From a virus, in IMG/VR virus record IMGVR_UViG_3300017957_001843, positions 1-64,000 of that record: a DNA stretch of 64,000 bases. One strand, written 5' to 3'. The position numbers were made by a program, and so were the translations under genes. The notes beneath the pieces were generated by a model. The model had not been told where the DNA came from and ran no database searches. It worked only from the letters and a program-made list of their open reading frames with translations. The stretch's first letter is position 1. Each line of letters starts with the position of its first letter. This document shows positions 2,044 through 42,288 of this stretch, piece by piece.

Positions 2044-2587
2044 ATTTGTTCTGTATCCTTTCTCTACGTTTTTTATATTCTTGAATATTTAATTTCCATA
2101 AATTTTGTTTTGTATAATATAATTCTATTTCTCCTTTGTCTTCTAATATACCTTGCTTTGCTAATAATCCCATTAATCGATGATTCCTAGCAGCTTTGCC
2201 GTTAGAATGATCGTTATATAGATTTGTTGTCATATAAAGATTATCACTTGGACACCAATCTATAAACAAAGGTATAAACTCTCTCTGTGTTAAACTATTC
2301 CAATCTCCTTTACCTAGACCTTTAAAACTATCTGTATGAGGTAATTCGCATCCTCTAAAAAGTATTCTCCAAGCATCATTAGAAACTTCAGGTAAAGGAT
2401 GACATCCTGCAACTGCTATAATTTCTTCATCTCTAATTGCACACCAATATTCTCCTTGTGTTTTACACCAAATTAATTTCATTGCACGAAAGCTAGAGTT
2501 ATTTTCATATCCTAAATCTTTACATTTATTACAAAATACTTGTAACATATCAAGATGTTTATCTTGTATTTTTTCTATCTTAATCAT
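2033..2587 (-). CDS. Putative GNAT-fold acyltransferase
   Basis: YWCAIRDEEIIAVAGCH ... AWRILFRG beta-strand pattern; 184 aa. Weak motif evidence only. Confidence 0.45.
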   Translation of the reverse strand: MIKIEKIQDKHLDMLQVFCNKCKDLGYENNSSFRAMKLIWCKTQGEYWCAIRDEEIIAVAGCHPLPEVSNDAWRILFRGCELPHTDSFKGLGKGDWNSLTQREFIPLFIDWCPSDNLYMTTNLYNDHSNGKAARNHRLMGLLAKQGILEDKGEIELYYTKQNLWKLNIQEYKKRRERIQNKYVV

Positions 2588-15592: not shown

Positions 15593-16767
15593 ATTTTGTA
15601 TCCATTCTTTTTCATAAGGGTATAAAACTCTGGAAAGGTTTTACTAAATGACTGTCCTCTATATTCGTCTTGCATTTTTGTTACTTCTAAAAATCTATCC
15701 CAATGTTCTTCTTTATATGGTTCAGAATTCATAAAATTTATAATACTGTTTACCCAATACTTTTCATTGATAGTTTCAAGTTTAGTTTGGACTGCCTTTT
15801 TAATTTCAGGCGGTAAATTTTTAATACAATAATGATGCGGTCCAAAAACTAAATTTAAATATATATTTCTAGTATGTGGTAAAAATTCATTGTACATTTC
15901 ATCTATATAATAAACGTTTAATGTGCTAATCGTATTACAAATACTTACATTAAATTTTGGCATCTCTTTAGAAATACTAATTAATTTCAGTAAGTTAGAT
16001 TTTACTGTATCCCAATCTGCAGGATATCTAACATAATTTAGCTTATCTTTTACTCCGTCAATACTAAAATCAATATCTATACCTTTAAAATGTTTTAAGA
16101 TATTATATTTTTCATCGTCCCAAATAGTTCCATTTGTATTGTAGTGTAATGTAATGTTTTTTGCTATGTCTTTTTCTATTGCATACTCCAACATTTCCCA
16201 TTGTTTTTTAACAAGGAAAGGTTCACCACCATAAAAATCAATATGAAGAACGTGTTCTAAATTATTTTCAAATTCTTTCCAAAACTTACTATCATCATCA
16301 AATGCGTGATTAAATCTTTTTAACCATTCTTTATATTCTGGTTGACTACCTTTAAAGAATTTTAAATCGAACCATTCTTTGTTCCAGAAACTACTATTAA
16401 AAGGTCCACAAGTACGACACTTAATATTGCAAGTAGTACCCATATTAATATCTAATAACTGAAAAGTACCATCTATTTTATTTGCAGTATGACGTTCATT
16501 GTCTCTAAGTCTTTTACTTTTTTTGCCTGCTTCTTCTTCTGACCAACAGTGTTTGCAAGCAGGATGTTTTTTACCTTTATTAAAGGCTTTTATAATTTTT
16601 TTTCTAGTTTTTGAATTAGCAATTTCAGTAAAAGTATTATCTTTTACATTAAGCGGATTGTCATTATCGTCAAAATAATTTTCAGACATCATACAACAGG
16701 CTTTACACGACCCATCTGTGTTAATTCTTAAACCTTTTTTTAAATTTACGCACTCTAACTGATTCAT
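15589..16767 (-). CDS. Radical SAM protein with N-terminal Twitch/SPASM-like domain
   Basis: N-terminal C...DGSCKACC...CKHCW; core CNIKCRTC, YGGEPF, YNTNG, FSIDG. Confidence 0.9.
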   Translation of the reverse strand: MNQLECVNLKKGLRINTDGSCKACCMMSENYFDDNDNPLNVKDNTFTEIANSKTRKKIIKAFNKGKKHPACKHCWSEEEAGKKSKRLRDNERHTANKIDGTFQLLDINMGTTCNIKCRTCGPFNSSFWNKEWFDLKFFKGSQPEYKEWLKRFNHAFDDDSKFWKEFENNLEHVLHIDFYGGEPFLVKKQWEMLEYAIEKDIAKNITLHYNTNGTIWDDEKYNILKHFKGIDIDFSIDGVKDKLNYVRYPADWDTVKSNLLKLISISKEMPKFNVSICNTISTLNVYYIDEMYNEFLPHTRNIYLNLVFGPHHYCIKNLPPEIKKAVQTKLETINEKYWVNSIINFMNSEPYKEEHWDRFLEVTKMQDEYRGQSFSKTFPEFYTLMKKNGYKI

Positions 16768-17948
16768 AAGTATTTTCTTATCTCCGGAAATATGTCAGTT
16801 AAAGACTCGTTTCTACGATCATCTAACCATTTTGTTCTTTCAACAAATTTGTTCCATAAATCCGGAGAACCCTTTTCTTTTAAATTATTTAATAAAGCTT
16901 CAAATTTTTCTGGATATTTTTCATACCATTTACTATTTAAAATTTTCTTAATTGCTTGTTTTTTTAATTTTTGTGGCAAAACTTTAGGCTGCAAATATTC
17001 CGGATATACTAATAATTGAGGGTAAACATTTGATGTCATTACCCAAGGTTCGATGTCAATTTCATCAAAAAATTCTGTAATATAAAATGCATTATAAATC
17101 ATCCAAGTAGAGTTTACAACAACTTCTTTATTACTGCCAAAATGTTCTACTATTTTATTTAAATTATTTTTTACTTTAACATCGTTGTAACCAGATCTGA
17201 TGTATTCTCCCAAAGACCCTAAACCATCTAGACTAACGCTATATGTTACTCTAGAAAAGTTTTTCCACATATCAATTATATTATATTTTCCATATTTTAT
17301 AATGCTGCCATTACTTTGGTAATATAATTCAGGATGTAAATCATTTTTTATACACCAATCTAAAAATTCATAGTGTTCTTTTTGCACTAGCGGTTCTCCG
17401 CCAGCAAAATACACATACTTTATGTTTTTTAAATATTCATAATTATCATCGCAATATTTTACAATATCTGGAATACTAGTTAATGTATCGAGAGGTGGAT
17501 TAATTGTATCTTCATACCATTTAGTACTTGCTCCAGCACCACACATTCTACATTTATAATTGCACACGTTACTAAATCTAACATCAAAATACAATATATC
17601 TACATCATAATATCCGTCAGATTGTGTATTGCTAATTATTTTTTGTTCTAGTTCAGCAGTAAGATACTTTGTATTGCTATGCTTCCTTGCACTATGATTT
17701 CCATATTTTTCTAAAATATAGCATTTTTCGCAATTTTTTATTTTTTTATCTGCAAGCATATCTTTTCTAATACGCTTAAAATCTTTATTGTTTAATGCTT
17801 CATTTATACTTGTATCTTTTGCATTAACAAAATTATCTTCTTTAGAAAACTTTTTAGCCATACAGCAAGGTATAACAGTTCCTTCTGTTTCTACGTGTAA
17901 ATGCATCCAAGGTAATACACAAAAATATGGTTTATCTTTTAAACTCAT
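16764..17948 (-). CDS. Radical SAM protein with N-terminal Twitch/SPASM-like domain
   Basis: FCVLPWMHL...GTVIPCC...CEKC; core CNYKCRMC, AGGEPL, SLDG. Confidence 0.9.
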   Translation of the reverse strand: MSLKDKPYFCVLPWMHLHVETEGTVIPCCMAKKFSKEDNFVNAKDTSINEALNNKDFKRIRKDMLADKKIKNCEKCYILEKYGNHSARKHSNTKYLTAELEQKIISNTQSDGYYDVDILYFDVRFSNVCNYKCRMCGAGASTKWYEDTINPPLDTLTSIPDIVKYCDDNYEYLKNIKYVYFAGGEPLVQKEHYEFLDWCIKNDLHPELYYQSNGSIIKYGKYNIIDMWKNFSRVTYSVSLDGLGSLGEYIRSGYNDVKVKNNLNKIVEHFGSNKEVVVNSTWMIYNAFYITEFFDEIDIEPWVMTSNVYPQLLVYPEYLQPKVLPQKLKKQAIKKILNSKWYEKYPEKFEALLNNLKEKGSPDLWNKFVERTKWLDDRRNESLTDIFPEIRKYL

Positions 17949-19341
17949 TGTATACCTCTTTGCAAGTCTCTAAAAAATTCTTATATAAAGGAAACGTATT
18001 TGTAAAGTTTAAATTACTGCGTTTATCATAATCTGTAAAAAATACATAAAAATCTCGTCTGCCTCGACTAATTAAATCTGAAGTAATCTTTTGAGATCCG
18101 TCATAAAAATAATCTCTTACTCTTTTAAATTTTTCGTATTCGTGCTGGCTAAATTTAAAGGTATCGCCACCATCACTTCTTAAATTTTTATTGATAAACT
18201 GTAAATCATCGTCTAAATATTTTCCAAATTCATTAGGTAAGATATTAATCATCCAATGTGGCGGCTCTTTAAGGTAAGGAGTATCAAAACCAAGCATTTG
18301 TCTATGATCGTTTTCTGTATTGTATTTTTGTCTTAGCTCTAGTATTTTTTCTAATAAAGGTCTAAAATATGCAACAGCAAGAACATTATATGTAATCATA
18401 ATACTTACAGGAGAATTTGTAGTTGTAATAAAGGTATCTAAATTTTTCTCCCAAAGTTTGCAATCAAGACCTCGACGCATATATTCTGCTTGTTCGCCCC
18501 AACTATCTATACTTGTATATAATCTAAATGATTTAATTTTATTTTCATCGAGGAGTTTTTTTACACGTTCGCTTAATCTTTTAACTTTGTTATGAGTTAC
18601 TCCTAAATTACTATTCATATTAATTTCTAATTCAGGTGCAGGTTCTCTATCTAACAAGTCTAACATTTTAAAAATATTAGAACTCATTAAAGGTTCTCCG
18701 CCTGTTAGTCTCAAAACTCTAAGATCATTTTTTAAATCAGGCCACCAATCCCAAAATGCAGTAACATATGGATTTTCTTCCTCATTTTGATAAAAATGTC
18801 CTTCTTTATCTAAAAATTCTATACCATACTGGTTATATGTTAAATCATAGTTACCGTGTTTTTTTATTTCGTCTACCCATAAACTACTAGCCTGAGGGCA
18901 ACAATAACCGCATTTAAAATTACAACCGTTACCAAAACTTAATTCTAAAAATCTAGGATTAATATTTTTATCCCACGGCATTGTTTTTATTAAATCAATA
19001 TCGTCCTTAACCCAAGAACTGGCACTATGAAACATTCTATCACTAAAATGTTCTCCTGGTAAATCTTCAATATTCCAACAGTAATAACATTCTTCAGGCC
19101 GGCCGCCTTCTAACATTGTCTTACGCTGCATTTTCTTATAGTTTGTATTGTGCAATGCACTAGGATCATTTAAAACTTCTTCAAGGGGAATATGATGAGG
19201 GCGCGGATGATAACAACTATGATTATCACCTGTTTGCAAGTATAATGTTTCGTTTAACCATTTCATTGCACAGAAGCCAGGGCCTACTTCATTTAGCTTG
19301 TCCCTTGTGCGCTTTACGTGATCCATATATCCGTCACTCAT
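17932..19341 (-). CDS. Radical SAM protein with N-terminal Twitch-like domain (HSCYHP variant)
   Basis: FCAMKW...HSCYHP...ECYYCW; core CNFKCGYC, TGGEPL, SIDSWG. Confidence 0.9.
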   Translation of the reverse strand: MSDGYMDHVKRTRDKLNEVGPGFCAMKWLNETLYLQTGDNHSCYHPRPHHIPLEEVLNDPSALHNTNYKKMQRKTMLEGGRPEECYYCWNIEDLPGEHFSDRMFHSASSWVKDDIDLIKTMPWDKNINPRFLELSFGNGCNFKCGYCCPQASSLWVDEIKKHGNYDLTYNQYGIEFLDKEGHFYQNEEENPYVTAFWDWWPDLKNDLRVLRLTGGEPLMSSNIFKMLDLLDREPAPELEINMNSNLGVTHNKVKRLSERVKKLLDENKIKSFRLYTSIDSWGEQAEYMRRGLDCKLWEKNLDTFITTTNSPVSIMITYNVLAVAYFRPLLEKILELRQKYNTENDHRQMLGFDTPYLKEPPHWMINILPNEFGKYLDDDLQFINKNLRSDGGDTFKFSQHEYEKFKRVRDYFYDGSQKITSDLISRGRRDFYVFFTDYDKRSNLNFTNTFPLYKNFLETCKEVYNEFKR

Positions 19342-20764
19342 TCGTTAACTCCTTGCATTCATTTATAAATTTTTCAAATGTAGGGAATACTACTTGTATA
19401 TTTGTATTCCTTCTCTTGTCGTGTTCTGTAAAATATAGATAAAAATTCTTTTTAGCGATATCTTCTAACGGTGGCGGCATCTTATCACAAGCCCAGTCAT
19501 ACAAACGTTTTACTCTATCAACTTCGAAATCTTTAAAACCTTTATATCTATTTTCTTTAGTTTCTTTATTTGCTTCCATAAACTCTATGCTATTTAATAA
19601 AGGCTGTAACATCTCTTTTGATGCTAACTTCATACTCATCCAGTTTGGATCGTGTAACATAGGAGTATCAAACCATATTAACTGTCTATTAGTATTAAAT
19701 TCTTGCCTCATTTTTAATATATTTTGAATATATACTTCCCAATTAGGCAAACTTAAAATATTAGCAGTAACTATAAATGTTAAACTATGCTTATCACTCT
19801 TATTAAGGTAGTCACATACATTTTTATACAATGTATTAAAATTCATTCCATTTCGAATGTATTCTGCTTGTTCTCCCCAACTATCTAAACTGCAATATAA
19901 CATAAAGTGCTCAATAGCATCTTTATCAGTAATTTCTTTTAGAGAAGTTAAAAACTTACTCCATTGTTCGCCTGGCGGGCAGCAATTACTTGTTATACTT
20001 AAATGTAATTGTTTGTGTGGGTTATTTTTTACATAATCAAACACCTTAAATGTATTTTTATCCATTAAAGGTTCACCGCCTGTCATACGAAATGTTTTTA
20101 ATTTAGAATATATTTCAGGAAACCATTTCCAAAATGCTTCTACATATGGATTATTCGGACTGTTATCTATTTTCAAACTGTCTACATAAGAAGGATGATT
20201 GTGTTCTTTGTCATATAATTTGTATGCGCCATATTTTTTTGTTTCTTTTAGCCATTCTGTTGATAACGAAGGGCTACAATATGCACATTTTAAATTACAA
20301 GCCTGATTAAAGTTTACTTCAACATATCTTGGTACAGGATTGCCTGTGGCTCCTTCCTTTAATGCTTCTTCAAATATTCCTTCTTCAATTACATCTAAAC
20401 TTCTATAAGCTCTATCACTAATATTACCTTGATCTTCTAATGCCCAACAGAATTCACATTCTTTAGGACGTTCTCCGTTTAGCATCTTTGCACGTTGTTC
20501 TTTTTTATGCTTTGTATTATGTAAAGCACTTGGATCTTGTTGCAATTCAGTTAAAGGTATATGGTGACTTAACGGATGATAACAACTATGTGTGCGGCCA
20601 GTAGGAATATGTATGCTTACATTAAACCATTTAGCAAGACAAAAGCTAGGACTTATATTATTAAGTTTATCTTCTAATAGTTTAATATCTTCAAAATATA
20701 CACTTTTGTATGCAGTACTAGTTGAATCTGTTTTTACCTTATCACCTTTTTGGTTATCGCTCAT
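19334..20764 (-). CDS. Radical SAM protein with N-terminal Twitch-like domain (tandem paralog of 17932..19341)
   Basis: FCLAKW...HSCYHP...ECEFCW; core CNLKCAYC, TGGEPL, SLDSWGEQAEY. Confidence 0.9.
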   Translation of the reverse strand: MSDNQKGDKVKTDSTSTAYKSVYFEDIKLLEDKLNNISPSFCLAKWFNVSIHIPTGRTHSCYHPLSHHIPLTELQQDPSALHNTKHKKEQRAKMLNGERPKECEFCWALEDQGNISDRAYRSLDVIEEGIFEEALKEGATGNPVPRYVEVNFNQACNLKCAYCSPSLSTEWLKETKKYGAYKLYDKEHNHPSYVDSLKIDNSPNNPYVEAFWKWFPEIYSKLKTFRMTGGEPLMDKNTFKVFDYVKNNPHKQLHLSITSNCCPPGEQWSKFLTSLKEITDKDAIEHFMLYCSLDSWGEQAEYIRNGMNFNTLYKNVCDYLNKSDKHSLTFIVTANILSLPNWEVYIQNILKMRQEFNTNRQLIWFDTPMLHDPNWMSMKLASKEMLQPLLNSIEFMEANKETKENRYKGFKDFEVDRVKRLYDWACDKMPPPLEDIAKKNFYLYFTEHDKRRNTNIQVVFPTFEKFINECKELTNE

Positions 20765-24386: not shown

Positions 24387-25106
24387 CTACAGATTTCTTT
24401 GGTGATCAGTAAACTTGTTACCTTGTGTGTCCTCGCCCCGCCAATACCTTTTTCCTACACCGTGAGGTTTTTGCGTGTCAGGACCGCCACGTTCTTTACC
24501 TGCGTTTATCATTTCTTGTTGCTCGTTTTTTACTTCTTCAATTGCATTATAATTTTCAGCAAGATCAATTTCAAAATTGTCTACAAAATATCTAGGTATT
24601 GGTAACACTGCACTGATTATATCACCTTTCTTGACATTTACTTTTACATTAGGAGTTAATATTTTTAAATTAAATGTAAAATCTCTGCGTAGATTGTCTG
24701 TTTCTACAACAGCAGTCATATTAGAAAGATTAGGTGTAAAATAATTAGGCGGATTAATCACCATTAAATTTATGCCTTTGGGTGTTTTGAAAGTGAATCT
24801 ATTTTGTACCGTAATCAACCCACTACCAAAATGCGCACTAATATGTTGTTTATCTGTACCTTCACTATCTATAATTACATCATTAGGAGCATCGCCGCCA
24901 TTCCAAATCGCACTAAAATTAGTTGTGCTTTTTATAGCAAATCCATACTGATTGCCTATTACTACTGGTAAACAATGTACTACGTGTTTATTGATCCAAT
25001 TTCTAGTTTTTTTGCCCTTGAGAGGTTCTACAATTTCTAAGTAATCGTTTTTATGTAAATCATTTTCTGGTACTATCAGTATTTTATTTTGAGGTACATT
25101 AATCAT
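24387..25106 (-). CDS. DUF6065-like protein
   Basis: HCLPVVIGNQYGF, HFGSGLIT, FKTPKGINL...PPN, VVETD, FTFNLK motifs. Confidence 0.65.
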   Translation of the reverse strand: MINVPQNKILIVPENDLHKNDYLEIVEPLKGKKTRNWINKHVVHCLPVVIGNQYGFAIKSTTNFSAIWNGGDAPNDVIIDSEGTDKQHISAHFGSGLITVQNRFTFKTPKGINLMVINPPNYFTPNLSNMTAVVETDNLRRDFTFNLKILTPNVKVNVKKGDIISAVLPIPRYFVDNFEIDLAENYNAIEEVKNEQQEMINAGKERGGPDTQKPHGVGKRYWRGEDTQGNKFTDHQRNL

Positions 25107-25626
25107 CTTTTGTTAAAAATAAAACTATTGTATATCTTTCTCCACTAGTAACTTCACTGACTCCGTGTAGATACTCTTTTGTTCCTTTGAACTGTACAAG
25201 AGTGCCCGGAACAGTCTTAGGTTCAATGTTTTGATTTGGAAAAAATATTTGTCCGCCTTTGTAATCGCTATTTAGATAGATCAAAACACTATAATGTCTA
25301 TTTGGATACGGATGCGGAGATCCGTCTAGATTTTCACAATCTGCGTGAGGTGGATCTAGTTTATCTCCTTTGCGCCACCTAACAATTTGACAAGTTTCTA
25401 CAAAACTTTTTTGTTTTTCATTTGCTTCTATCAATTTTACAATACGATCTTGGATATCTTTTATTTGTGCTAAAACATTTGGATTTGTTATTAAGTTGTA
25501 GTGTATAAATTTTTCACTCCAATGATCATTTGTAACAACCCAATCGGAAGTTGTTTTTGCATAGTTACAAATATCAGTGGTAGTTTGTTCGTCTAAAAAA
25601 TTATTGTCAATGTAAATATCCTGCAT
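25099..25626 (-). CDS. 2OG-Fe(II) oxygenase, prolyl 4-hydroxylase-like
   Basis: QIVRW, PPHAD (HxD), YSVLIYLNSDYKGGQIFFP, HGVSEVTSGERYT (distal His and 2OG-binding Arg). Confidence 0.85.
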   Translation of the reverse strand: MQDIYIDNNFLDEQTTTDICNYAKTTSDWVVTNDHWSEKFIHYNLITNPNVLAQIKDIQDRIVKLIEANEKQKSFVETCQIVRWRKGDKLDPPHADCENLDGSPHPYPNRHYSVLIYLNSDYKGGQIFFPNQNIEPKTVPGTLVQFKGTKEYLHGVSEVTSGERYTIVLFLTKDD

Positions 25627-25656
25627 ACATTATATATTAGTATATGCAGGATATTT
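25614..25656 (-). promoter_or_regulatory. Perfect 14-bp inverted repeat covering the start codon of the P4H-like gene
   Basis: AAATATCCTGCATA (25614-25627) and TATGCAGGATATTT (25643-25656), 15-nt loop. The ATG at 25626-25624 lies in the stem. Confidence 0.75.
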
Positions 25657-25668
25657 TATATAATTTGA

Positions 25669-28600
25669 CTAAAACGAAGGTAAACCTCCCCCGGTAATAG
25701 TGAAGGTTGTGCTTGCACTTCCGGCTCCTGTTTGTGCAACACCTACTGAATAACTTCCTACTGGGAATGTTGCGTCTATAAAATCGTTACCACTAGAATT
25801 AGTAGTTCTAGATCCACTTGTATAGAAAGTACCATTTCTGTATACAGCATAAGAATAACTTGTATTAGGTATGCCTCCTGTTACACTAGCAATAGCCGTA
25901 GTACCAACCACGGATACAGATATCCCAATCTGATAGGACGGTGGAGGTGGCGGCGGTGGTGGTGGCGGAGGTGGTGGTGGCGGAGGTGGCGGAGGTGGCG
26001 GAGGTGGTGGTGGTGGAACCGAAGCCGTCACCGTTATACTGTCCGATGCTAATGTTGTTTTTGATCCAAACCAATCGTTCACCAAATATATTGTAAAATT
26101 ACCAGTAGAACTAAATGTTTGTGGTAAACTACCTGGATTTTGTGTTGGTGCAAACGCTCCTATATAACTACCGTCTCTATAATATGCAAGATATACATCT
26201 GTTCCGTTTGACCAACTCCAAGATGCAGTAAATGTAGTACTATTAACAACTCCACTAGAAGGCGAAATAGCATAACTTCCACTAGCTGGTGGTGGTGGTG
26301 GCGGTGGGGGTGGCGGTGGGGGTGGCGGTGGCGGAGGTGCAGCCACCACTGAAAGATTTGCAGTTACTGACACACTTTGGCTTTGGCCGTTTTCGTCTGT
26401 ATATGTCACAAATGCGCCGCCGACATATGTTCCTGTTTGAGCTAATATGACACTAAGAGAATGAGCACTTGTAGTTGTGCTTGATGATGTAACTGATCCA
26501 CTAGGATTTCTAATATATGTGTAACTACTATTTCCAGTAAATCCTAGATTAGGCTGGTAATAGAACGTACCTGTGTCGCCAACATAATGAGGTGCAGATG
26601 ATGTTACAGTTACACTCGGTGTTGGTGCAGCTACAGGTGCATTTGCAATAGGAATAGTATCTGATGCAGTTGCATAACTTGTAGTTCCACTAGAGTTTGT
26701 GTAAGCTGTTGCAATACTTGCTCTCCAATTGCCTGTGCCGCTTAATACTTCGTGAAGTAGTGTTCCACTAGCAGCAGTAGAATTTGTAACTGAAGTGCTC
26801 GAGCTCGGTGGATAAATTGCTGCATAAGAGCTGTTTCCTCCTCCTCTAGAAAAATTAGCAGCTATCGTGTCGCCTATTATACCCGATGGTTCATCAAATG
26901 CTATAGAGGGCGTCGGAACAACCACTGCTGCACTTGCTGTCATTGTTGCATCTGCACCTGTTGCTAAATTAGGATCATTTCTGTTAAAAACAGCTATAGA
27001 TGCTGTATATGTTCCTACGACACTAGCAGTACCAGAATCAGATCCACTATTTTGTGTGCTATTATAGATCTGCTGGCCATTAGGGTCAGTAACAGATACG
27101 ATTGTACCAAATATTGTTTCGTTATTATTTGCATCCCAACTCATAGTGTAATTTGTAGAATTAACTGTACCTGTAGTTGGAGACCAACTTATGCTAGGAG
27201 TGTTTGGGCTAGGATTTGAAGGTGTTGTACTTGTATCTCCTACTGTTGTTGATGTTGTAGCTACTGCACTTCCACCGCTGGTTGCACTTACTACTACCTG
27301 GAATGATTCTTGCCCTTCTGTAGTTTGATCAGCTGTAGGAGATATTGAAAATTGTCCTGTATTATTATTAATAGTAAATGAACCACTTGTAGAACTAAAA
27401 TCTGCACTTGAAGTTGTGAGGTTATTTATACGCCAATATAGTGAAGTTCCGTTTGGTATTCCTGATGTTGTAACTGTATATGTTCCAGAACTACCTTCAC
27501 TAATTACATTACCCGCAGGTCCTGTAATCGAATAACTAGGTGCTGCTGTTGATACTGATGCTGTCCTAGTGTTGCCTGTAGAACTAAAGTTTAATGTTGC
27601 AGCACAATTAGGATAAACAGAAGTTGCTATAGCTACTAAACTTGTATTACCTAGTGAATTTGTATTTCCGCTACCTACAATTTGTGAAAAACCAGAAGTA
27701 TTTGTAATAGTAAATGTATCAAACGGTGTAGCATTAGTCACATATATTCCTACTTCGCCGTTTATTCCGGGATCTATGGCTACCATTTGCACATTTTCAT
27801 TCACTGCTGCTGTAACCGTAAAACTTATATTTGCTCCTGTATCAAGGAAATTTGCAGGAGATAGGTTATAATTTCTTGTACCCGGTGTATTAATAACAGC
27901 AGATAGAGACCAATTACCGTTGGCATCAAAATTGTCTGCGAGGGTGTCGCTTCCTGATATAGTAAATGAACTGTTTGGTCTGCCACCTGTTGCGCTAAGT
28001 GTAACTGTATCGCCTGTAACAGGATTAGTAGGAGATACAGATAACGAAACTGTATACGTATCAGTAACTGTATAATTTAACGTAACACTACCACTATTGT
28101 CATCTGTAAATGTAATACTGTAGTTGCCTGCGGGAGAACTTTGTACTTGTATACCTGCTGCAACTCCTGACGAGTTAAAATTACCTAAATTAAAACCATT
28201 GGCATAAAAATTTCCATTAGGAAATCCACCGCTCAACGAAACTTCTCTATTTGCTCCAGTAGCACCTGTTGTAATTGTAAAATTATTTCTATCCAATTGA
28301 AGATTAGATGTTACAGTCTGTGAAGCACTAGCTGTTGAAGGATTTCCTGTACTAAAAGTTGCTACCGCATTATATGTTCCAGGAGAAATGTGGTTACGTG
28401 ACCAAGTTCCTAAACCACTTGAATTTAATGATATAGTATTAGACTGATTAATCAGCAAAGGACTTGTGTGAGAAGTGTTTATAGTAACTGATTGGAAGGG
28501 ATCTCCAGAAACAGAAATGTTAAATGGCGTATTAGCTCTAATAGTAGAAGGCATAGTAATACTATTATTAGGATTGTCATTGTCTAATAAATCTAAAGAG

Positions 28601-31056
28601 GCACTAGCACTGTCTCCGCTGTCTCTGTGCGTCCAAGTAAATGTGATAGTTTTGTTGCCGTCATTTATGCTATCATCTTCAGTCTGCTTAACTATGCCAA
28701 CATACCCACTATTTACTCCTCCGCTTTGTGTTTCGCTCCCTGTCAAACTTGCATATGTAGATGTAAAATCATTAGAATTAACCCCACTAATACTCCAATC
28801 AAAAATATCACCAGAACTATAACCAGTAGTAGCGATCTGTGCAATAAATACTCCGCCTTCTGTGATGCTAGTTATAGATTGTGAATTCTGGGTAAATGAA
28901 GGAGTGATACTTTTTGCAACAGGCGTTGTTGAAGTGTCTTGTATTGTTGCAAATTTAGCATTTGAAACATTATTAGGTCCACTTACTCGTGTCCCGAAAA
29001 TTTCTGATCCTTCAGTTGTGGAATCTGCAACAGTTGTTCTAGTAAATGTGTATGTACCGTCGCCTGTGTTTGGTAGATTAGTTATTGTAACTGCTGCTGA
29101 GCCGCTCATTACACCGCCAACAAAGTCTGCTGCAACAGCATTTGTTCCACTAGTTGCATTTACATTAGACCAACTTACGTTTCCTGTTGATGATGACCAA
29201 TTACTTACTGTACCTGTATATGTGTATGTGTTATATGTAGTTTCGTTACCAATAGTCGGTGATGTGTAACCAGTATCAACAGATAAATCATTGTTTACTG
29301 TGGGTATGTTATTGTCAACGCCTGCGCCCGTCCAATAAATTTTATAACTTTGACCATCACCTTCAGCTTTTAGTGCAGTAAAATCAAAAGTTCTATTTAC
29401 AGCACGAAAATCAAGTACACTTTGAGGGATAACACTAATAGGAACTGTCAATGATGCAGGACTTGCACCTAAACTATACGTTTTAGTTGCAGATCCGGAT
29501 GTTGAACTTATACCGTCTACTGAAACATCCCAAGCCGTTGGTCTGCCAGTTTCTTGTACTGTAACATTTCCGCTTGCATTGCCTGTGCTTGTAAGAGTAA
29601 TATTAGTAGTAGAGCTTGTTCCTATTTGCACATCGCCTATATCCCACGCTGTTGATTGTGTTAAGTATGAACTAGGTGAAACATCAAATGTAAACACTTG
29701 CGGAGGAGGTGGTGGCGGTGGTGGCGGTGGTGGCGGAGGTGGCGCAACACTAGTATCATTTATTGTCATACTAATGCTATCTTTTCCATTATCTAAACTT
29801 AGAGTAAGTGTTTCAGACCCTTCTGTAATTTGATCTGCTACAGGACTTATTACAACTGAATTAGTTGTACCTACAACAAAAGATCCTTGTAACGGAATAC
29901 CTAAATCAGCCTGTGAAGTTCCTGTAATAGTATAAGGAATTACTGTACCATTAGATACGTTACTAGTAGACAATGTTATGCTTGCGCTACTGCCTTCGTT
30001 TACATTACTTGCAGACCTACTCAAATTGTAAGTAGCAACAGGCGGCTGCGATGCACTTAGCTCAACAATGTTACTTCCTACAGGTACATCTGCTGATCCA
30101 TATACCACTGTGTTATAAGTCTGCCCGTTAATATCTACAGATCCGTTTGGTATAAGTAATTGTGCGCTACTGGTCCAATTACCAAATACAGGCTCATCTA
30201 TACTGAATCCGCCTGGACTAGGATCAGCAAAATTTACTTTAAATTGTATAGTCCTTGAATCTACATCTAGTGCATACAATTCATATTGACTTAAATTATA
30301 AGTGCCTCCTGCATTTTTACTGTAGCAAAGTTGGTAGCTACTACTAAGGTTAGTTGCACCAACATTTTGTCCATTACCTACGCCGGCATTGCTAAAAGTT
30401 CTATCACCTTTAAAACTTACAACTCCCATACTTTGCATTTCTGTTTGCCAGTCCACAGTTTTTTGTTGTGATCCTGTATAACTTACACTTGCACTAAATC
30501 TTACCTCACCCCCTGCGTTAAAAAAATGACGGCGAGTTTCGTCTGTAGGGAAAGTAATCGTAAAAATATGGTTAATAAAACTAGTCCATTGACCATTTAC
30601 AGAATTTAAATATGTGCTGGTAATTTGATTGCCACTGGAATTATTCAAATCAGCAACATTTGCTTGTCCTACTGTATCTATCTCAAATCTATCATTTTCG
30701 ATTTGAGTCATTAAATTTTCTAAATTTTGTATATAAGTAAGTTCTACAAGCTCAGCGTCATTGGGATTGTTGACAAAGTCTCCTACAACAAAATCATTTA
30801 CTGAAACATTTCCAGCACCTAATTGGTGTGCTCTACATCTAATTAAATCTATGTATAAGTCTTCGTATTGTTGTGCAGTGATTTTATCACTAGAAGGAGG
30901 CGCAACAGATCTTGTTCCGTCTACATTTTGAGATGCATTAAGTGTTTCACCATACCCAAAGTCGGGTGCTGCTGTTAAAGATGTCCCTAGTACTTTTTCT
31001 AGCCTATCCTGTAGGCTGTTAAAGCGAGACGCTAAAATCGTTGTAGTTGTTGCCAT
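25669..31056 (-). CDS. Large virion fibre/appendage protein (1795 aa) with Ig/Calx-beta-like repeats and three polyproline tracts
   Basis: N-terminal ~300 aa paralogous to 31113..36068 (RRHFFNAGGEVRFS); repeated 'ADxxTEGxE' Calx-beta-like motifs; Ser/Thr-rich; P14, P17 and P26 runs; follows the tail-fibre genes. Confidence 0.8.
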   Translation of the reverse strand: MATTTTILASRFNSLQDRLEKVLGTSLTAAPDFGYGETLNASQNVDGTRSVAPPSSDKITAQQYEDLYIDLIRCRAHQLGAGNVSVNDFVVGDFVNNPNDAELVELTYIQNLENLMTQIENDRFEIDTVGQANVADLNNSSGNQITSTYLNSVNGQWTSFINHIFTITFPTDETRRHFFNAGGEVRFSASVSYTGSQQKTVDWQTEMQSMGVVSFKGDRTFSNAGVGNGQNVGATNLSSSYQLCYSKNAGGTYNLSQYELYALDVDSRTIQFKVNFADPSPGGFSIDEPVFGNWTSSAQLLIPNGSVDINGQTYNTVVYGSADVPVGSNIVELSASQPPVATYNLSRSASNVNEGSSASITLSTSNVSNGTVIPYTITGTSQADLGIPLQGSFVVGTTNSVVISPVADQITEGSETLTLSLDNGKDSISMTINDTSVAPPPPPPPPPPPPPPQVFTFDVSPSSYLTQSTAWDIGDVQIGTSSTTNITLTSTGNASGNVTVQETGRPTAWDVSVDGISSTSGSATKTYSLGASPASLTVPISVIPQSVLDFRAVNRTFDFTALKAEGDGQSYKIYWTGAGVDNNIPTVNNDLSVDTGYTSPTIGNETTYNTYTYTGTVSNWSSSTGNVSWSNVNATSGTNAVAADFVGGVMSGSAAVTITNLPNTGDGTYTFTRTTVADSTTEGSEIFGTRVSGPNNVSNAKFATIQDTSTTPVAKSITPSFTQNSQSITSITEGGVFIAQIATTGYSSGDIFDWSISGVNSNDFTSTYASLTGSETQSGGVNSGYVGIVKQTEDDSINDGNKTITFTWTHRDSGDSASASLDLLDNDNPNNSITMPSTIRANTPFNISVSGDPFQSVTINTSHTSPLLINQSNTISLNSSGLGTWSRNHISPGTYNAVATFSTGNPSTASASQTVTSNLQLDRNNFTITTGATGANREVSLSGGFPNGNFYANGFNLGNFNSSGVAAGIQVQSSPAGNYSITFTDDNSGSVTLNYTVTDTYTVSLSVSPTNPVTGDTVTLSATGGRPNSSFTISGSDTLADNFDANGNWSLSAVINTPGTRNYNLSPANFLDTGANISFTVTAAVNENVQMVAIDPGINGEVGIYVTNATPFDTFTITNTSGFSQIVGSGNTNSLGNTSLVAIATSVYPNCAATLNFSSTGNTRTASVSTAAPSYSITGPAGNVISEGSSGTYTVTTSGIPNGTSLYWRINNLTTSSADFSSTSGSFTINNNTGQFSISPTADQTTEGQESFQVVVSATSGGSAVATTSTTVGDTSTTPSNPSPNTPSISWSPTTGTVNSTNYTMSWDANNNETIFGTIVSVTDPNGQQIYNSTQNSGSDSGTASVVGTYTASIAVFNRNDPNLATGADATMTASAAVVVPTPSIAFDEPSGIIGDTIAANFSRGGGNSSYAAIYPPSSSTSVTNSTAASGTLLHEVLSGTGNWRASIATAYTNSSGTTSYATASDTIPIANAPVAAPTPSVTVTSSAPHYVGDTGTFYYQPNLGFTGNSSYTYIRNPSGSVTSSSTTTSAHSLSVILAQTGTYVGGAFVTYTDENGQSQSVSVTANLSVVAAPPPPPPPPPPPPPPPPPASGSYAISPSSGVVNSTTFTASWSWSNGTDVYLAYYRDGSYIGAFAPTQNPGSLPQTFSSTGNFTIYLVNDWFGSKTTLASDSITVTASVPPPPPPPPPPPPPPPPPPPPPPPPPPSYQIGISVSVVGTTAIASVTGGIPNTSYSYAVYRNGTFYTSGSRTTNSSGNDFIDATFPVGSYSVGVAQTGAGSASTTFTITGGGLPSF
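25939..26016 (-). repeat. Polyproline tract, 26 Pro codons
   Basis: 78 nt of mixed CCA/CCG/CCT codons. Confidence 0.95.
26287..26337 (-). repeat. Polyproline tract, 17 Pro codons
   Basis: 51 nt of mixed CCN codons. Confidence 0.95.
29701..29742 (-). repeat. Polyproline tract, 14 Pro codons
   Basis: 42 nt of mixed CCN codons. Confidence 0.95.
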
Positions 31057-31112: not shown

Positions 31113-34100
31113 CTATCTTATATCAATGCCAGTTTCAACAACTATAACACTTTGTGATACAGTTGTACCGTCTACCTGTAATGATGCTTTCACTTGCCTA
31201 GTCGGCTGTCCGTCGTTTACACCCATTACATAACCCGGAACATATATACTTCCTGATCCTGTCGAAGTTGTAAAAGTTTGATCAAGCCATATGTTATTAC
31301 CCACCATATCTTGTATAATGACTCTAAAGTTTGTGCCACCGCCGGTTGTATAGCTCCAAGCTACAAGGTCTCCTGCTCCATAAATAGTCAGCGGACTACC
31401 AAAGGTAATTGTTCCATCTGGTGTAGGTGTAGTAATAACTTCTACTGATGTACTATCTATCAATACTTCTTTTGTGATTGAATCATACAAATTGTAATTC
31501 CACACGCCAAGAGTATCCGGAGCATTTACTGTAAACGATCCTCCAGCACTAGTTAAAGCAATTAGCTGTGCTATTGGTCCAGTTACCGGATCTACAAATT
31601 CTAAATAAACTTGAGATCCTGGAGCATTTTGCACTGACCAAGTATATGTAAGATCTGTATCACTATATGCAACAGCAGGTAAAACTGTAAGAGATCCTGT
31701 AGCAGCTTGTTCTGCAAGTTCATACGTTGCATCAGCAATAAATTTACCATTCACAAACAACTCGAATGTATAGGTTCCAGTTCCGTTTTGAAGTGTACGA
31801 GATTTAGAGCCACTTGTGCCTACATTTTCTAACTGATTATCTCTTTGCACTAATGCACCATTTGGACCTATTATCTGTACATAGATGCTAGTTGCACCAG
31901 TTGTGCTCCAGGAGTATGTTGCTTCATTATTTCCTGAACCTGCTGCAACTGATATACTACCAGTAACTTGTTCAGTTATTGTTAGTGCTGCACTATCGAC
32001 CACGGGTCCTATTTGACTATTTGCGTGTGCATTTACAAGATACTCGCCTGTAGACAATAATTCAGTTATATTAATTGAAGTACCATTGCCACTTACTGTA
32101 GTTGGTCCTAGGAGACTTCCGTCTCCACTTGCATCATATACACTCCACCATATAGATGTTCCGTCTGCAACATCAGTTGTTGCTAGATCATAAGTAGCAG
32201 ATTGTCCCTCCTGAACAGTTTGTGTTGCAGGTGTTATGATATAAGTTGGGGTAGGTGCAGGTGCTTCTTCACGCTGTATCGTTAGTGTAAATTCTGGATA
32301 ATTGCCGCTGTAACCAGGAGAAACAAATGCATATTTCACTCTATATGTTGTATTGTCATCATCTGGTACCGTTGCTGCTACACCTATATCTGCTGTATTG
32401 TAGTTTGCAGCGTATTGTAGCGTTCCGCTCGTTGGTGAAACAGCAGCATAAACGCCTGTTGGTTTTTCACTTACATAAGCTGACCAATCAAGGGGTAGTT
32501 GCCTTGGAGAGCTGCCTTCATCCTTGTATAATTTGAAAGTTGTTGAAGGTGTATGGCTTCCAGTCGCAGGAATAGTTATAGTCTCACTGGAGGTACTTAA
32601 ATAAAGAGGAGTGTCTTCAACTTGTGGTTGTTCCACTGTAACATATTTTGTATCTGTGTTAACTCCTGGATAGCTATATGATATAGTATAGGTAATTTCT
32701 CCAGGTTCGGGTTCTGTAATTTGAACACTTGCATTGCCTAAATTATTAAAAGTTCCACTAATTAGTCCTGACCCAGATCCGTTTATAGTCCACGTTGTAT
32801 TAGGTTGACCGCCTGTTGCTGTTATAGTGAAAGGTACATCTTCGGTTACTGTACCAGGAACTGTCCATACCACATCACTAGGCGGAGTTGTTGCGTCTTC
32901 ATATGAAATATAAATTGTTTTTAGATTACTACCGTTTGGAGTAGTACGCAACACAGTGCCAAATCTTTCTGCATCTGCTATTCCGTCGTCAGCAAGGGTT
33001 CTAGAAAACTGTGCTGTGTTGTTTTGTATTGTAATCGAACCATTCATTGCACCGTCAGTAAAATCATTTCCGTTAACACTTTGAACAGCCTGCCCTGATT
33101 TGTGTGCCCAATAAAGAGTTGTACCGTTTGCTACATTCGTTGTAGTAACAGTAAAGGTTACTGTTTCACCTTCTGTCATAGATGACTTATCTGCTGACAT
33201 ATCATAAGTGGGTGTTGTATCCACTTCAGGAGTGACTCTTACAGGATAGCTAATAGATGTACCTGCAGTATGTCTTATTAATAGACTCATATTTACCTGT
33301 GTATCGCTATTAATAATAGCACCTATTTTAATGCTTTTCATAGCTAGGGGAGTAACTAAAAATGGAAAATTTATTGCACTGTTGGATGGGTTTGATACCG
33401 TCAATGCGCCCTGTGAAGGATACTGGGGTATAATATCGGTTACTGAAACATTACCACCTATGGAATATATATCAATGGTAGCAAATCCTGTATCCCCAGG
33501 AGGTAAAGTAAGGTTTGTACTTGCAGGTGCTACTTTAAGTTCTGGAGTTTCTGGTGGCTCTACTTCTATTTCAACATATGAAATTTGAATTGCGCCGTCG
33601 CCGCCGCTGTTAAATCCTGTAGACGATCCGCCGCTTGCGCCGCCACCGCCGCCATATGTTCCGCCAGTTGCCCCAGATCCAGAGTTTCCTCCAGCACTGC
33701 CGCCGCCTGGTGAACCTGATTGCCCTGCTGCACCAAAAGTGCCCGTGCTGTCAAGTTGTTGGTTAAAACCAACACCGCCGCCACCTCCAGCATCAAGGCT
33801 AGGACTTGATGATCCTGAGCCACCACCACCACCGCCGGCACCTGCGCCGCCGTTGCTGCCGTTAGTTGCTAGTATACCTGAAATGCTGCGGCCACCGTTA
33901 CCTCCGTCTCCGCCGTTGGCATTAAGTCCTCCGGCGCCACCGCCGCCGCCTCCACCATAGGTATAATAGCCGCTTCCACCTCGACCACCGTTGCCGCCTG
34001 CTGATCCAGGAGATACAAATCCTCCAGGAGTTCCGCCAGACGATAAAACTGTGTTATCTAAAATTTTGCCGCCTGCGCCTCCGCCTGAGGCTCTAAGAAA

Positions 34101-36068
34101 ACTGCTGGAACTCCACCAAGTAGATTCGCCTGCGCCACCTGCGGCTCCGCCTGCACCAACATCTACATTAAATTCCAATCCAGCAGTAGGTCGAGTATAT
34201 GTATATTCGGCATAGCCGCCACCACCGCCACCGCCGGCGCCGTTATTTTGACCAGAACCGCCACCGCCAATAACTTTGACTGTTAAGGTTTCGAGATTTC
34301 CAGGAACTCTATAATAATAGCTACCAGGTCCTCTAGTTACACTAGGGCTAGTATTTGGTATTTCTGTACGCACATTTGTTGGGAATGAGCTATCAGTGAT
34401 CCTAGTCCTTGCTTCTGGTGGTTTGTTAAGCACAATTGTACCGTTAATACTACCTGTTCTTATTTGTACATCAAACGCTTCAGGTCCTTCTAGTAAATTG
34501 TCAGGTCTAGTTATTAAAATAAATGATCCAGTATTGTTATTAATTGTAAATGAACCGCTAGGTGTTTCTGCAAAATCATCTTCGCTTATGTTACCTTCAG
34601 CCTGGAATACTGTGTAAAATAATTCTGTTCCATCATCGAGATTGGTAGTAGTGACAGTATATAATACTGTTGCATTATCTTCGTCAACAACATTTGTATT
34701 TGCACTAACTGCATAAGTAGGATCTGGAGCTTCTACAGTACCTAAACTATCATCTATGATTGTAATTGCACCTGTTTGGGCAACCTGGGTAGTTCTTTCT
34801 ATGTTTGTAAATAATCTCAAACGGAAAGATTCACTACCTTCGGTAATTGCATCTGCTCTTATGTTTCTATTTACTGTTCTTTCAGCCTGTGTATATGAAG
34901 ATGTAATTGTAACACTACCTTGCAGTGTATTATCCTCAAAATCTGCTGCTGTAATATTGCCACTTAATATTTGTGTGTCCCAATATAGTGTCACAGGAAA
35001 ATCTACATTTACTGCCTGTACTATGTAATCTACACTAGAATATTGTCCATTAGCAACATTTCCAATTTCATACTGATCTCTTGCTGTAGTAATACCGAAA
35101 GAATATTCTGGATTCTTATTCACTTCGGGGGGAATCTCATAACCTGATAGTGATGTTTCAGTGTATAATGAAGGAGACTTAACACTAACATAGTTACCTA
35201 CTGCTCTATAAACTTGTATGTTGCTTTCTAACTTTCCGTCAACGTTGTTGTCATAATTAGATCCTGTAGACGAATCATTGAAATCTACTTTGAATTCAAT
35301 CTTTTTATCATCTACTTGTCTAGCTTTTATAGAATAGTTATTAGATGCATAAAGACTACTATAAGTTCCGCGGCCACTTTTTTGAAAGATTGTCTGGAAG
35401 CTAGTTGTTAAGTCATAATTACCAATGTATGTCTGCGGAACGTTGCCTACAGTAGTTGTTGTATATCCAAAAGATACAGTGCCTACATCATTACACAAAT
35501 CAGCCCAGTCTAATCCTTTTGCATTTCTTGCTCCAACATTTGCAGTAGAAAAACGTATTTGTCCGCCTGTATTAAAAAAATGTCTTCTATGATTAGCATC
35601 ATCAAAAGTGACTGTAAAAATGTGTGATATTACATCATTCCATCTTGCAGATCTATTATCTGTTAACTCTAATTTTTGCTCAGCCTGTGAAGGATGAATA
35701 TTAAATTTATCTGATTCTACTTGGGATATTAAATCTTCAAAATCTTCAAATCCTTTTAACTCACCCTCAGGATCTGTAGAAACTAAACCATCATCATTAA
35801 CAAATTGGCTTGTGTCTTCAGCAATTGTATTTAAATTGGCTGTAACCCTTGCAATACTTAAATCGCCTGGTCCTACTTGGTGCACCCTTGCATTTAAAAT
35901 ATCTGTATAAATGTTGTTTATATCAGAAGCTCTAATAATACCGTCTGTGGCATTAACTTGAGAACTGGCTAATGTTTGTCCGTAGCCATTTTGGCCCGAT
36001 CCTTCTCCATATACTAACGCAATCCTATTTTGCAGGTTATTAATATCAGCTGCTTGGATATTAGCCAT
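31113..36068 (-). CDS. Large virion fibre/appendage protein (1651 aa) with Calx-beta-like repeats and a glycine-rich domain
   Basis: Shared N-terminus (RRHFFNTGGQIRFS), ADAITEGSESF and PDNLLEGPEAF repeats, Gly-rich block at ~33592-34269. Confidence 0.8.
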   Translation of the reverse strand: MANIQAADINNLQNRIALVYGEGSGQNGYGQTLASSQVNATDGIIRASDINNIYTDILNARVHQVGPGDLSIARVTANLNTIAEDTSQFVNDDGLVSTDPEGELKGFEDFEDLISQVESDKFNIHPSQAEQKLELTDNRSARWNDVISHIFTVTFDDANHRRHFFNTGGQIRFSTANVGARNAKGLDWADLCNDVGTVSFGYTTTTVGNVPQTYIGNYDLTTSFQTIFQKSGRGTYSSLYASNNYSIKARQVDDKKIEFKVDFNDSSTGSNYDNNVDGKLESNIQVYRAVGNYVSVKSPSLYTETSLSGYEIPPEVNKNPEYSFGITTARDQYEIGNVANGQYSSVDYIVQAVNVDFPVTLYWDTQILSGNITAADFEDNTLQGSVTITSSYTQAERTVNRNIRADAITEGSESFRLRLFTNIERTTQVAQTGAITIIDDSLGTVEAPDPTYAVSANTNVVDEDNATVLYTVTTTNLDDGTELFYTVFQAEGNISEDDFAETPSGSFTINNNTGSFILITRPDNLLEGPEAFDVQIRTGSINGTIVLNKPPEARTRITDSSFPTNVRTEIPNTSPSVTRGPGSYYYRVPGNLETLTVKVIGGGGSGQNNGAGGGGGGGYAEYTYTRPTAGLEFNVDVGAGGAAGGAGESTWWSSSSFLRASGGGAGGKILDNTVLSSGGTPGGFVSPGSAGGNGGRGGSGYYTYGGGGGGGAGGLNANGGDGGNGGRSISGILATNGSNGGAGAGGGGGGSGSSSPSLDAGGGGGVGFNQQLDSTGTFGAAGQSGSPGGGSAGGNSGSGATGGTYGGGGGASGGSSTGFNSGGDGAIQISYVEIEVEPPETPELKVAPASTNLTLPPGDTGFATIDIYSIGGNVSVTDIIPQYPSQGALTVSNPSNSAINFPFLVTPLAMKSIKIGAIINSDTQVNMSLLIRHTAGTSISYPVRVTPEVDTTPTYDMSADKSSMTEGETVTFTVTTTNVANGTTLYWAHKSGQAVQSVNGNDFTDGAMNGSITIQNNTAQFSRTLADDGIADAERFGTVLRTTPNGSNLKTIYISYEDATTPPSDVVWTVPGTVTEDVPFTITATGGQPNTTWTINGSGSGLISGTFNNLGNASVQITEPEPGEITYTISYSYPGVNTDTKYVTVEQPQVEDTPLYLSTSSETITIPATGSHTPSTTFKLYKDEGSSPRQLPLDWSAYVSEKPTGVYAAVSPTSGTLQYAANYNTADIGVAATVPDDDNTTYRVKYAFVSPGYSGNYPEFTLTIQREEAPAPTPTYIITPATQTVQEGQSATYDLATTDVADGTSIWWSVYDASGDGSLLGPTTVSGNGTSINITELLSTGEYLVNAHANSQIGPVVDSAALTITEQVTGSISVAAGSGNNEATYSWSTTGATSIYVQIIGPNGALVQRDNQLENVGTSGSKSRTLQNGTGTYTFELFVNGKFIADATYELAEQAATGSLTVLPAVAYSDTDLTYTWSVQNAPGSQVYLEFVDPVTGPIAQLIALTSAGGSFTVNAPDTLGVWNYNLYDSITKEVLIDSTSVEVITTPTPDGTITFGSPLTIYGAGDLVAWSYTTGGGTNFRVIIQDMVGNNIWLDQTFTTSTGSGSIYVPGYVMGVNDGQPTRQVKASLQVDGTTVSQSVIVVETGIDIR

Positions 36069-42280: not shown

Positions 42281-42288
42281 TATTTATT
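42281..42288 (-). promoter_or_regulatory. Late-type promoter motif AATAAATA overlapping the stop codon of the 5270-aa gene
   Basis: GAATAAATACAGTATAGGA before the ATG at 42263. Confidence 0.5.

Follow-up and report, generated by a model that had tools for sequence, protein, structure and literature searches.

A prolyl-hydroxylase-like oxygenase encoded beside a polyproline-bearing fiber-like protein of an uncultured phage

Why would a virus encode a 2-oxoglutarate (2OG)-Fe(II) oxygenase of a prolyl-hydroxylase-like family directly behind a fiber-like structural protein that carries long runs of pure proline? This arrangement lies in the 64,000-nucleotide (nt) stretch analyzed here (the window), which comprises positions 1 to 64,000 of IMG/VR virus record IMGVR_UViG_3300017957_001843. 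The gene product is a protein-prolyl-hydroxylase-like 2OG-Fe(II) oxygenase with an intact predicted active site, the adjacency of tract and enzyme is far beyond chance, and the enzyme has repeatedly come and gone together with proline tracts or Pro-Pro repeats. From the fold, the intact site, and this joint gain and loss, it seems probable, if well short of certain, that the oxygenase hydroxylates prolines in the polyproline linkers of the fiber.

The locus

The genes and tracts concerned are as follows (aa, amino acids).

24387..25106, minus strand: DUF6065 protein, 239 aa, PF19541; overlaps the oxygenase stop by 8 nt
25099..25626, minus strand: 2OG-Fe(II) oxygenase, 175 aa (P0001), PF13640, prolyl-hydroxylase-like family
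25627..25668, minus strand: spacer of 42 nt from the fiber stop to the oxygenase ATG; contains an inverted repeat over the start codon
25669..31056, minus strand: fiber-like structural protein, 1795 aa (P0002), the proposed substrate
25939..26016, minus strand: P26 tract, residues 1681-1706, a linker ahead of the final domain of about 90 aa
26287..26337, minus strand: P17 tract, residues 1574-1590, an in-frame proline run
29701..29742, minus strand: P14 tract, residues 439-452, an in-frame proline run

The fiber-like protein consists of a conserved N-terminal domain of about 300 aa, an array of Ser/Thr-rich repeat segments, and the three polyproline linkers, whose codons are mixed (CCA/CCG/CCT/CCC). 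It has no Pfam or PHROG match except one driven by the polyproline, and its gene is located among tail-fiber and baseplate genes. No other in-frame run of at least 4 prolines occurs in the listed open reading frames (ORFs) of the window; CCN runs at 33640-34269 (+) lie opposite glycine runs that the neighboring gene encodes on the other strand. An earlier reading of the sequence without database searches (the original prediction) had paired the oxygenase with this fiber and placed the two longest tracts near its end. Both tracts do fall within the final 222 residues, with 711 nt from the start of P17 to the oxygenase ATG and 313 nt from the end of P26 to the ATG.

The junction of the two genes has features of its own. 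A 14-bp inverted repeat (AAATATCCTGCATA ... TATGCAGGATATTT) at 25614-25656 spans the oxygenase start codon and, as a candidate gate, could control translation of the enzyme, and a weak terminator-like stem overlaps the fiber stop codon.

Family, active site, and fold of the oxygenase

The oxygenase matches PF13640 with an E value of 6.5e-10 (40.3 bits against a cutoff of 27) over profile positions 2 to 97 of 98. Both enzyme motifs named in the original prediction, LIYLNSDYKGGQIFFPN and LHGVSEVTSGERYTIV, are present in the 175-aa ORF, and its claim that this is the only oxygenase of the prolyl 4-hydroxylase (P4H) type in the window holds for the whole 75-kb source record, in which PF13640 matches once. 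The predicted iron ligands are H94 (25345-25347), D96 (25339-25341), and H154 (25165-25167), and the predicted 2OG-binding residue is R164 (25135-25137). All four are invariant across 20 homologues with 40 to 70% identity, forming a complete HxD...H...R site.

The reading of these motifs as a P4H-type signature stands only in part, as the signature is general to PF13640 and an Arg, not a Lys, occupies the 2OG site. P4Hc proteins have a Lys about 10 residues past the distal His, where this enzyme has R164, and a signal peptide or membrane anchor, where this enzyme has an N terminus (MQDIYIDNNF...) without a hydrophobic segment. Because Arg replaces Lys, we did not file the enzyme as P4Hc sensu stricto but as a separate PF13640 subfamily. 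Neither fold nor motif establishes hydroxylation at position 4; the product may be 3- or 4-hydroxyproline, and the genomic association with proline tracts, although strong, does not bear on regiochemistry.

The AlphaFold2 model of the oxygenase (predicted local distance difference test score [pLDDT], 96; predicted template modeling score, 0.91) has the double-stranded β-helix fold and aligns over all 175 residues to solved members of the family, with template modeling (TM) scores of 0.73 to 0.80 in Foldseek and Z scores of 15 to 17.6 in VIA. Foldseek ranks vCPH of virus PBCV-1 first (5c5t; E value, 5.5e-11), followed by P3H1, the Bacillus anthracis P4H, the Chlamydomonas P4H, PHD2, LH3, and PPHD. 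In the VIA all-against-all alignment, which is independent of Foldseek, five prolyl hydroxylases tie on top with Z scores of 17.6 to 16.9, and AlkB-type, TET, FTO, and small-molecule oxygenases lie lower, at 12.6 to 14.6. OGFOD1 and Tpa1 also score high. The closest sequence in the PDB is P3H1, with Arg at the 2OG position, where the B. anthracis P4H aligns a Lys; weak matches to Tet_JBP and NgTET appeared in the profile and PDB sequence searches. The original prediction had proposed such a profile and structure comparison and had named clustering with nucleic-acid or small-molecule oxygenases as the result that would speak against it. By Foldseek and VIA alike, the enzyme instead groups with the protein prolyl hydroxylases (vCPH, P3H1, PHD2, PPHD, and the B. 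anthracis and Chlamydomonas P4Hs).

Tract and enzyme in phages with homologous fibers

The N-terminal domain of the fiber (30157-31056, -) has 426 relatives in IMG/VR and no Pfam or PHROG match. It usually takes the form of two adjacent proteins of about 310 and 330 aa, the second of which is sometimes extended to 745 to 2091 aa. Viral contigs were scanned with this domain, and co-occurrence was scored on 80 of the loci, with a proline tract defined as a run of at least 7 prolines.

A tract is present in 13 of the 80 loci. The oxygenase accompanies it in 10 of these 13, either 4 to 48 nt behind the fiber gene or 5.1 kb away, and in the remaining 3 the contig ends before the oxygenase position. 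Neither tract nor enzyme occurs in the other 67 loci, and the enzyme without a tract occurs in none of the 80 (Fisher P = 1.7e-10). The tract-bearing loci form five polyproline lineages, in each of which the oxygenase lies downstream wherever the contig reaches. On the N-domain tree, a quick IQ-TREE result, the combination of tract and enzyme takes 4 changes for 4 rows, each beside sisters that lack both.

The clearest such comparison concerns a 2091-aa fiber with a P36 tract (L204), which is followed by the oxygenase and DUF6065 genes. The orthologous fibers of L269 and L205 (2018 and 2068 aa) have a short TPPLSY linker instead, and both cassette genes are exactly missing from flanks that are syntenic with those of L204 and contain genes up to 94% identical. 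Neither a relative of the enzyme nor a run of 8 prolines was found anywhere on the L269 and L205 contigs (73 kb and 22 kb). Elsewhere on the tree, fibers of 868 to 875 aa with P8, P10, and P19 to P21 tracts (L230 and L251-253) are accompanied by the oxygenase alone, without DUF6065, and the 745-aa fibers of L247, L248, L250, and L255 have neither tract nor oxygenase.

Close relatives of the locus, with 69 to 72% identity, keep the gene order and have tracts of other lengths (P15/P19/P25 or a single P36), which is by itself a matter of shared ancestry. P26 corresponds in position to P25 and P17 to P19 in L002-L006, and P14 corresponds to P15 in L003-L005; L007 and L204 have one P36 linker ahead of the final domain.

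Unrelated carriers and the wider oxygenase family

The same pairing is found with proteins that have no BLAST similarity to the window fiber, namely a 570-aa protein with five tracts (L014) and a 1546-aa protein with P14 and P7 (L015). In L177, the start of the enzyme gene is overlapped by the gene of a 221-aa protein that is Pro-rich at its end.

Pure polyproline as a general neighbor of the oxygenase family was rejected, since a run of at least 7 prolines occurs in only 3 of 80 metagenomic loci whose enzymes are 25 to 72% identical. When a Pro-rich ORF was defined as one with at least 9 prolines in 20 residues, such ORFs were found in 16 of 30 long metagenomic loci of low G+C content versus 4 of 67 control phage loci (P = 4e-7), all 4 of the latter belonging to one lineage. 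After clustering at 60% identity, 12 of 26 enzyme lineages have a Pro-rich ORF, in 7 of the 12 within 700 nt and on the same strand. These neighbors contain tandem repeats: (FFPP/YFPP)n in 18 loci, and also (PPYVPPPV)n, (PPVNPPS)n, (STPP)n, (SFPP)n, and (TPPIIAV)n. Those recognized by Pfam are of structural type, with fn3 (L296 and L331), Listeria-Bacteroides repeat (L336), or Hint (L289) domains, and all end in Pro-Pro repeats. The common denominator of the enzyme's neighbors is the Pro-Pro unit.

Three of these repeat genes, which lie a few genes upstream of DUF6065, an ORF of about 250 aa, and the oxygenase, share a further layout (L296:3543-4922, L331:5131-5964, and L289:3703-4806). After long repeats of the (FFPP/YFPP)n or (PPYVPPPV)n type, L289 has a Hint domain (intein/hedgehog type), L296 a similar-looking stretch that Pfam does not call, and L331 a Cys-rich end.

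In the reverse direction, viral loci were selected for a (CCN)12 run, which codes for proline in one reading frame only. The sole real positive among 120 such loci was L068:4519-5926 (IMGVR_UViG_3300032285_004126), where the gene of a canonical P4H with a membrane anchor precedes that of a 172-aa membrane protein containing P26; a second candidate, L067, was rejected because its run is polyglycine. The contig of L068 has an algal-virus-like appearance and shows the same adjacency of enzyme and tract.

Bacterial loci

A bacterial counterpart is found in a Hyphomicrobiaceae metagenome-assembled genome (MAG) (L174, 655-9719; CBDCWE010000003.1). It encodes a 2266-aa surface protein of the SdrD_B/Cna-B type, in which nine linkers of P16 to P32 separate the domains, and just downstream of it a 600-aa fusion of an N-terminal DUF6065 and a C-terminal oxygenase. 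All 124 (CCN)12 windows of this 5.1-Mb genome fall in the SdrD_B gene. In two Steroidobacteraceae-type MAGs (L145:8351-9016 and L150:10249-10965), small secreted proteins, in which a signal peptide and a hydrophobic segment precede tracts of P19 to P28 and then a polythreonine tail, are encoded 1.5 kb downstream of the oxygenase-DUF6065 pair. At a background of about 0.1 (CCN)12 tract per Mb, the bacterial oxygenase loci (about 0.5 Mb) would be expected to contain about 0.05 tracts, versus 3 seen. Fold and the repeated joint presence and absence of tract and enzyme, in sister phages, with nonhomologous proteins, and in bacteria, thus lend support to the enzyme-substrate pairing of the original prediction.

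A TolC-like outer-membrane protein is encoded near the L174 genes, and the tails of the L145 and L150 proteins have a mucin- or extensin-style appearance. Polyproline-coding tracts often lie at MAG contig ends (G311:C60 and G314:C120); assemblies appear to break at such tracts, and genes that contain them appear to be undercounted.

The DUF6065 partner

The gene downstream of the oxygenase, a conserved partner overlooked in the original prediction, matches PF19541 with an E value of 4.7e-37 (128.2 bits against a cutoff of 26.6) and has more than 900 relatives. Among the first 17 viral loci, DUF6065 follows the oxygenase in all 16 that reach past the enzyme, and it is paired with the oxygenase in about 35 of 61 bacterial loci and fused to it in L174. 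It is better conserved than the enzyme (45 to 79% identity), with invariant blocks GNQYGF, SHFGSG, and ETDNLRRDFTFN. It is absent from two polyproline lineages that have the oxygenase (L230 and L251-253). As a partner of the oxygenase, DUF6065 is frequent but dispensable.

The AlphaFold2 model of DUF6065 (pLDDT, 88.7) is a dUTPase-like jelly-roll β-barrel with a helical tail (Foldseek E value, 4.5e-4). VIA gives Z scores of 10.4 to 8.0 for eleven entries, nearly all of them dUTPases or herpesvirus proteins listed beside them; each of the 23 matches with a Z score of at least 5 is a dUTPase, a dCTP deaminase, or a viral protein that ranks between such enzymes. Identity to dUTPases is 6 to 16%. 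Because the fold is dUTPase-like, DUF6065 was rejected as a second oxygenase and is not counted as one. A search of the ESM Atlas with DUF6065 returned unnamed viral clusters only, and a literature search found no paper naming DUF6065.

Proposed mechanism and alternative explanations

In the mechanism that we favor, a cytoplasmic Fe(II)/2OG prolyl hydroxylase would turn linker prolines of the fiber encoded upstream of it into hydroxyproline, with O2 and 2OG as cosubstrates, while the infected cell translates the fiber or shortly afterward. Hydroxylation would stiffen and hydrate the polyproline-II (PPII) rods that space the fiber domains, and it may also protect the rods or make attachment sites. 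DUF6065, translationally coupled downstream, would be an accessory subunit of many but not all such systems. Four parts of this scheme we infer: the choice of proline as target, the ring position that is hydroxylated, the consequence for the virion, and whatever DUF6065 contributes, if anything. A broader proposal, to which we give an even chance, is that a soluble prolyl-hydroxylase-like oxygenase, usually with DUF6065, forms a widespread two-gene module in uncultured marine and freshwater phages and some bacteria that would hydroxylate polyproline rods and Pro-Pro repeats of fibers and surface proteins. No description of a two-gene oxygenase-DUF6065 module was found in the literature searched.

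Several observations weigh against hydroxylation of the tracts. Co-occurrence cannot tell modification of a tract from help in making it, and PPHD of Pseudomonas putida (with EF-Tu, 4iw3) ties as the best structural match. A Pro-rich neighbor is lacking in roughly half of the oxygenase lineages whose flanks are adequate and in about 30 of 35 bacterial oxygenase-DUF6065 pairs, the latter having unrelated housekeeping genes as neighbors. The (CCN)12 run is present in only 2 of 5 unselected pair-bearing bacterial genomes, both at contig ends, versus a background of 57 of 301 class-level genomes, a count that includes the unpublished G049 and G151 (55 of 299 without them); a genome-wide link of tract and enzyme in bacteria is weak. 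Among the 120 viral loci chosen for their (CCN)12 run, 118 are without such an enzyme in the vicinity, and long proline runs therefore do not need it. Finally, distant homologues in cultured cyanophages (25 to 37% identity) have no proline tract or DUF6065 nearby, and the inference therefore holds for this subfamily only.

Consecutive prolines stall ribosomes, and the target of the oxygenase might instead be EF-P, EF-Tu, or a ribosomal protein, whose hydroxylation would let ribosomes pass through long proline runs; genes with proline tracts would depend on the enzyme and for that reason be accompanied by it. Such a helper of translation would explain the co-occurrence equally well and would suit the tie of PPHD, the high structural rank of OGFOD1 and Tpa1, and the many bacterial pairs without a Pro-rich neighbor. 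We nevertheless consider it improbable. On their shared strand the tract gene comes first, with the enzyme gene 42 nt behind it at this locus and overlapping it in L015, L177, and L336, so that translation of the tract would precede or accompany that of its helper; the 118 (CCN)12 loci manage without the enzyme, no translation gene recurs beside the pair in bacteria, and a P4H of the algal-virus type shows the same adjacency (L068). There is a similarly small chance that the oxygenase modifies Lys, Asp, or Asn of the fiber or another virion protein, or DUF6065 itself, and that the tract merely marks a type of fiber. Lysyl hydroxylases (LH3 and mimivirus L230) are close structural matches, and DUF6065 is tightly coupled and highly conserved, but sister fibers that share nearly all other domains are without the enzyme when the tract is missing, carriers with unrelated domains share only Pro-Pro repeats, and two lineages have oxygenase and polyproline without DUF6065.

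It is just as unlikely, in our view, that tract and enzyme have no functional link and that a metabolic, DNA repair, or nucleotide oxygenase rides by recombination with the variable 3' end of the fiber gene. For cyanophage 2OG oxygenases, DNA repair or modulation of the 2OG balance has been proposed (PMC3037559), the enzyme has the weak Tet_JBP and NgTET matches, DUF6065 has the fold of a nucleotide enzyme, and in the comparison of L204 with L269, tract and cassette lie inside one diverged 3' block. Against this stand at least 4 independent joint changes on the fiber tree, the same pairing with nonhomologous proteins and in bacterial chromosomes, and the scores of nucleic-acid oxygenases, which are 3 to 5 Z units lower. 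An extensin-like pathway, in which the hydroxyproline would then be glycosylated by the gene cluster downstream of the pair (ORFs of 283, 278, 205, and 306 aa and radical SAM genes), also has little to recommend it. The genes share a strand and are tightly spaced, with a UDP-sugar dehydrogenase and an aminotransferase further along, but the cluster is equally present in sisters that lack tract and oxygenase, it is absent beside the oxygenase in every other lineage, and no ORF in it matches a glycosyltransferase model or, by sequence, a solved structure. Hydroxylation of the fiber's own prolines thus remains the reading that we favor.

Neighboring genes and genomic context

The ORFs downstream of the pair (118, 283, 278, 205, and 306 aa) were rejected as glycosyltransferases, as searches of Pfam, PHROGs, NCBIfam, and PDB sequences gave no support; NCBIfam matches to YhhC, PRK05467, and FlmC were far below the cutoffs and were not used. 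These ORFs and the radical SAM genes are kept, with up to 85% identity, in sisters lacking tract and enzyme, and no other lineage was found in which the cluster accompanies the oxygenase. The enzyme shows no coupling to the putative sugar and radical SAM genes. Of eight radical SAM genes (window 3266-6810 and 14369-20764), some of which encode SPASM domains, five are consecutive; sisters with and without the oxygenase and tracts alike retain this cluster.

The original prediction had counted four 2OG oxygenase-like genes in the window. Hidden Markov models (HMMs) recover two, the PF13640 enzyme at 25099-25626 and the following gene.

2584-3198: PF05118 oxygenase (HMM)

Upstream of the fiber gene, a paralogous 1651-aa protein (31113-36068, -) has the same N-terminal domain and polyglycine runs of G4 to G7 (33640-34269) and no polyproline. 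The structural region further contains a single ORF of 5270 aa (window 42284-58096, -). Profile searches identified a gp25-like baseplate gene and tail-fiber-type genes in the window. The source record is a viral contig with a CheckV completeness of about 20% at 75 kb, and the source is therefore a large tailed phage. No cultured relative of the window was found by DNA match or by a search with the fiber N-terminal domain, and a search with a baseplate-region protein returned a lysin-like domain match only.

Significance

Of the "auxiliary" genes of marine phages that still lack an explanation, those for 2OG-Fe(II) oxygenases are among the most frequent, and a defined substrate class, the polyproline and Pro-Pro repeats of fibers, would make one oxygenase subfamily a testable system of virion tailoring. 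If the proposed activity is real, hydroxyproline would be known in phage particles for the first time, bacteria would have an equivalent of the eukaryotic hydroxyproline-rich proteins, and part of the abundant "metabolic" phage 2OG oxygenases would be reassigned to virion tailoring. Hydroxyproline would join the known phage modifications, DUF6065 would receive its first function, and surface proteins of bacteria, for example the SdrD-like one with its nine polyproline linkers, would become candidate substrates.

Comparison with known systems

Among phages, the nearest cultured counterparts are the cyanomyovirus 2OG-Fe(II) oxygenases (PHROG 61 / 2297), which belong to the same PHROGs at 25 to 37% identity; unlike the locus described here, S-RIM50, P-RSM4, and AG-345-L05 have no proline tract or DUF6065 within 8 kb. 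A 2026 annotation paper noted the likeness of such phage oxygenases to human EGLN3 and named no substrate (PMC12774648). No paper linking phage oxygenases to polyproline was found in our literature search.

Among bacterial enzymes, P. putida PPHD is a cytoplasmic prolyl hydroxylase and ties for the best structural match (VIA Z score, 17.6). PPHD targets one proline of a translation factor. The B. anthracis P4H (3itq and 5hv0) is a bacterial PF13640 protein with the same fold as the phage enzyme; it differs in having Lys where the phage enzyme has Arg and in lacking a DUF6065 partner. It binds collagen-like (Gly-Pro-Pro)n peptides, and its physiological substrate is debated.

Cr-P4H-1 of Chlamydomonas and the plant-type P4Hs (2jig and 3gze) have the same fold and accept poly(L-proline) and (Ser-Pro)n in the PPII conformation, the chemistry on PPII substrates that is proposed for the phage enzyme. 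They are enzymes of the secretory pathway whose products are then arabinosylated, whereas the putative sugar genes of the phage locus are not coupled to the enzyme. Human P3H1 (leprecan; P3H1/CRTAP/PPIB, 8k0e), which makes 3-hydroxyproline in collagen, is the best PDB sequence match (E value, 1.4e-6; VIA Z score, 17.5; root mean square deviation, 2.0), and the motif ...YLN.D..GG...F...HGV..VT.G.R aligns, including the Arg. P3H1 works with accessory subunits, but it is a 736-aa multidomain enzyme of the endoplasmic reticulum, and the phage locus has no CRTAP- or cyclophilin-like partner.

The closest parallel is the prolyl 4-hydroxylase vCPH of the chlorovirus PBCV-1, which is likewise virus encoded, small, and single domain (Foldseek TM score, 0.75; VIA Z score, 17.5). 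vCPH belongs to a eukaryotic virus, and about 20% of its aligned residues are identical to those of the phage enzyme. It is membrane anchored and binds 2OG via Lys, and its reported substrates are Pro-rich repeats in proteins of the virus, whereas the phage enzyme is soluble, has Arg at this position, is often paired with DUF6065, and lies beside pure polyproline. Viral prolyl hydroxylases that go with Pro-rich proteins of the same virus are already known, and the phage pair would belong to this kind of system.

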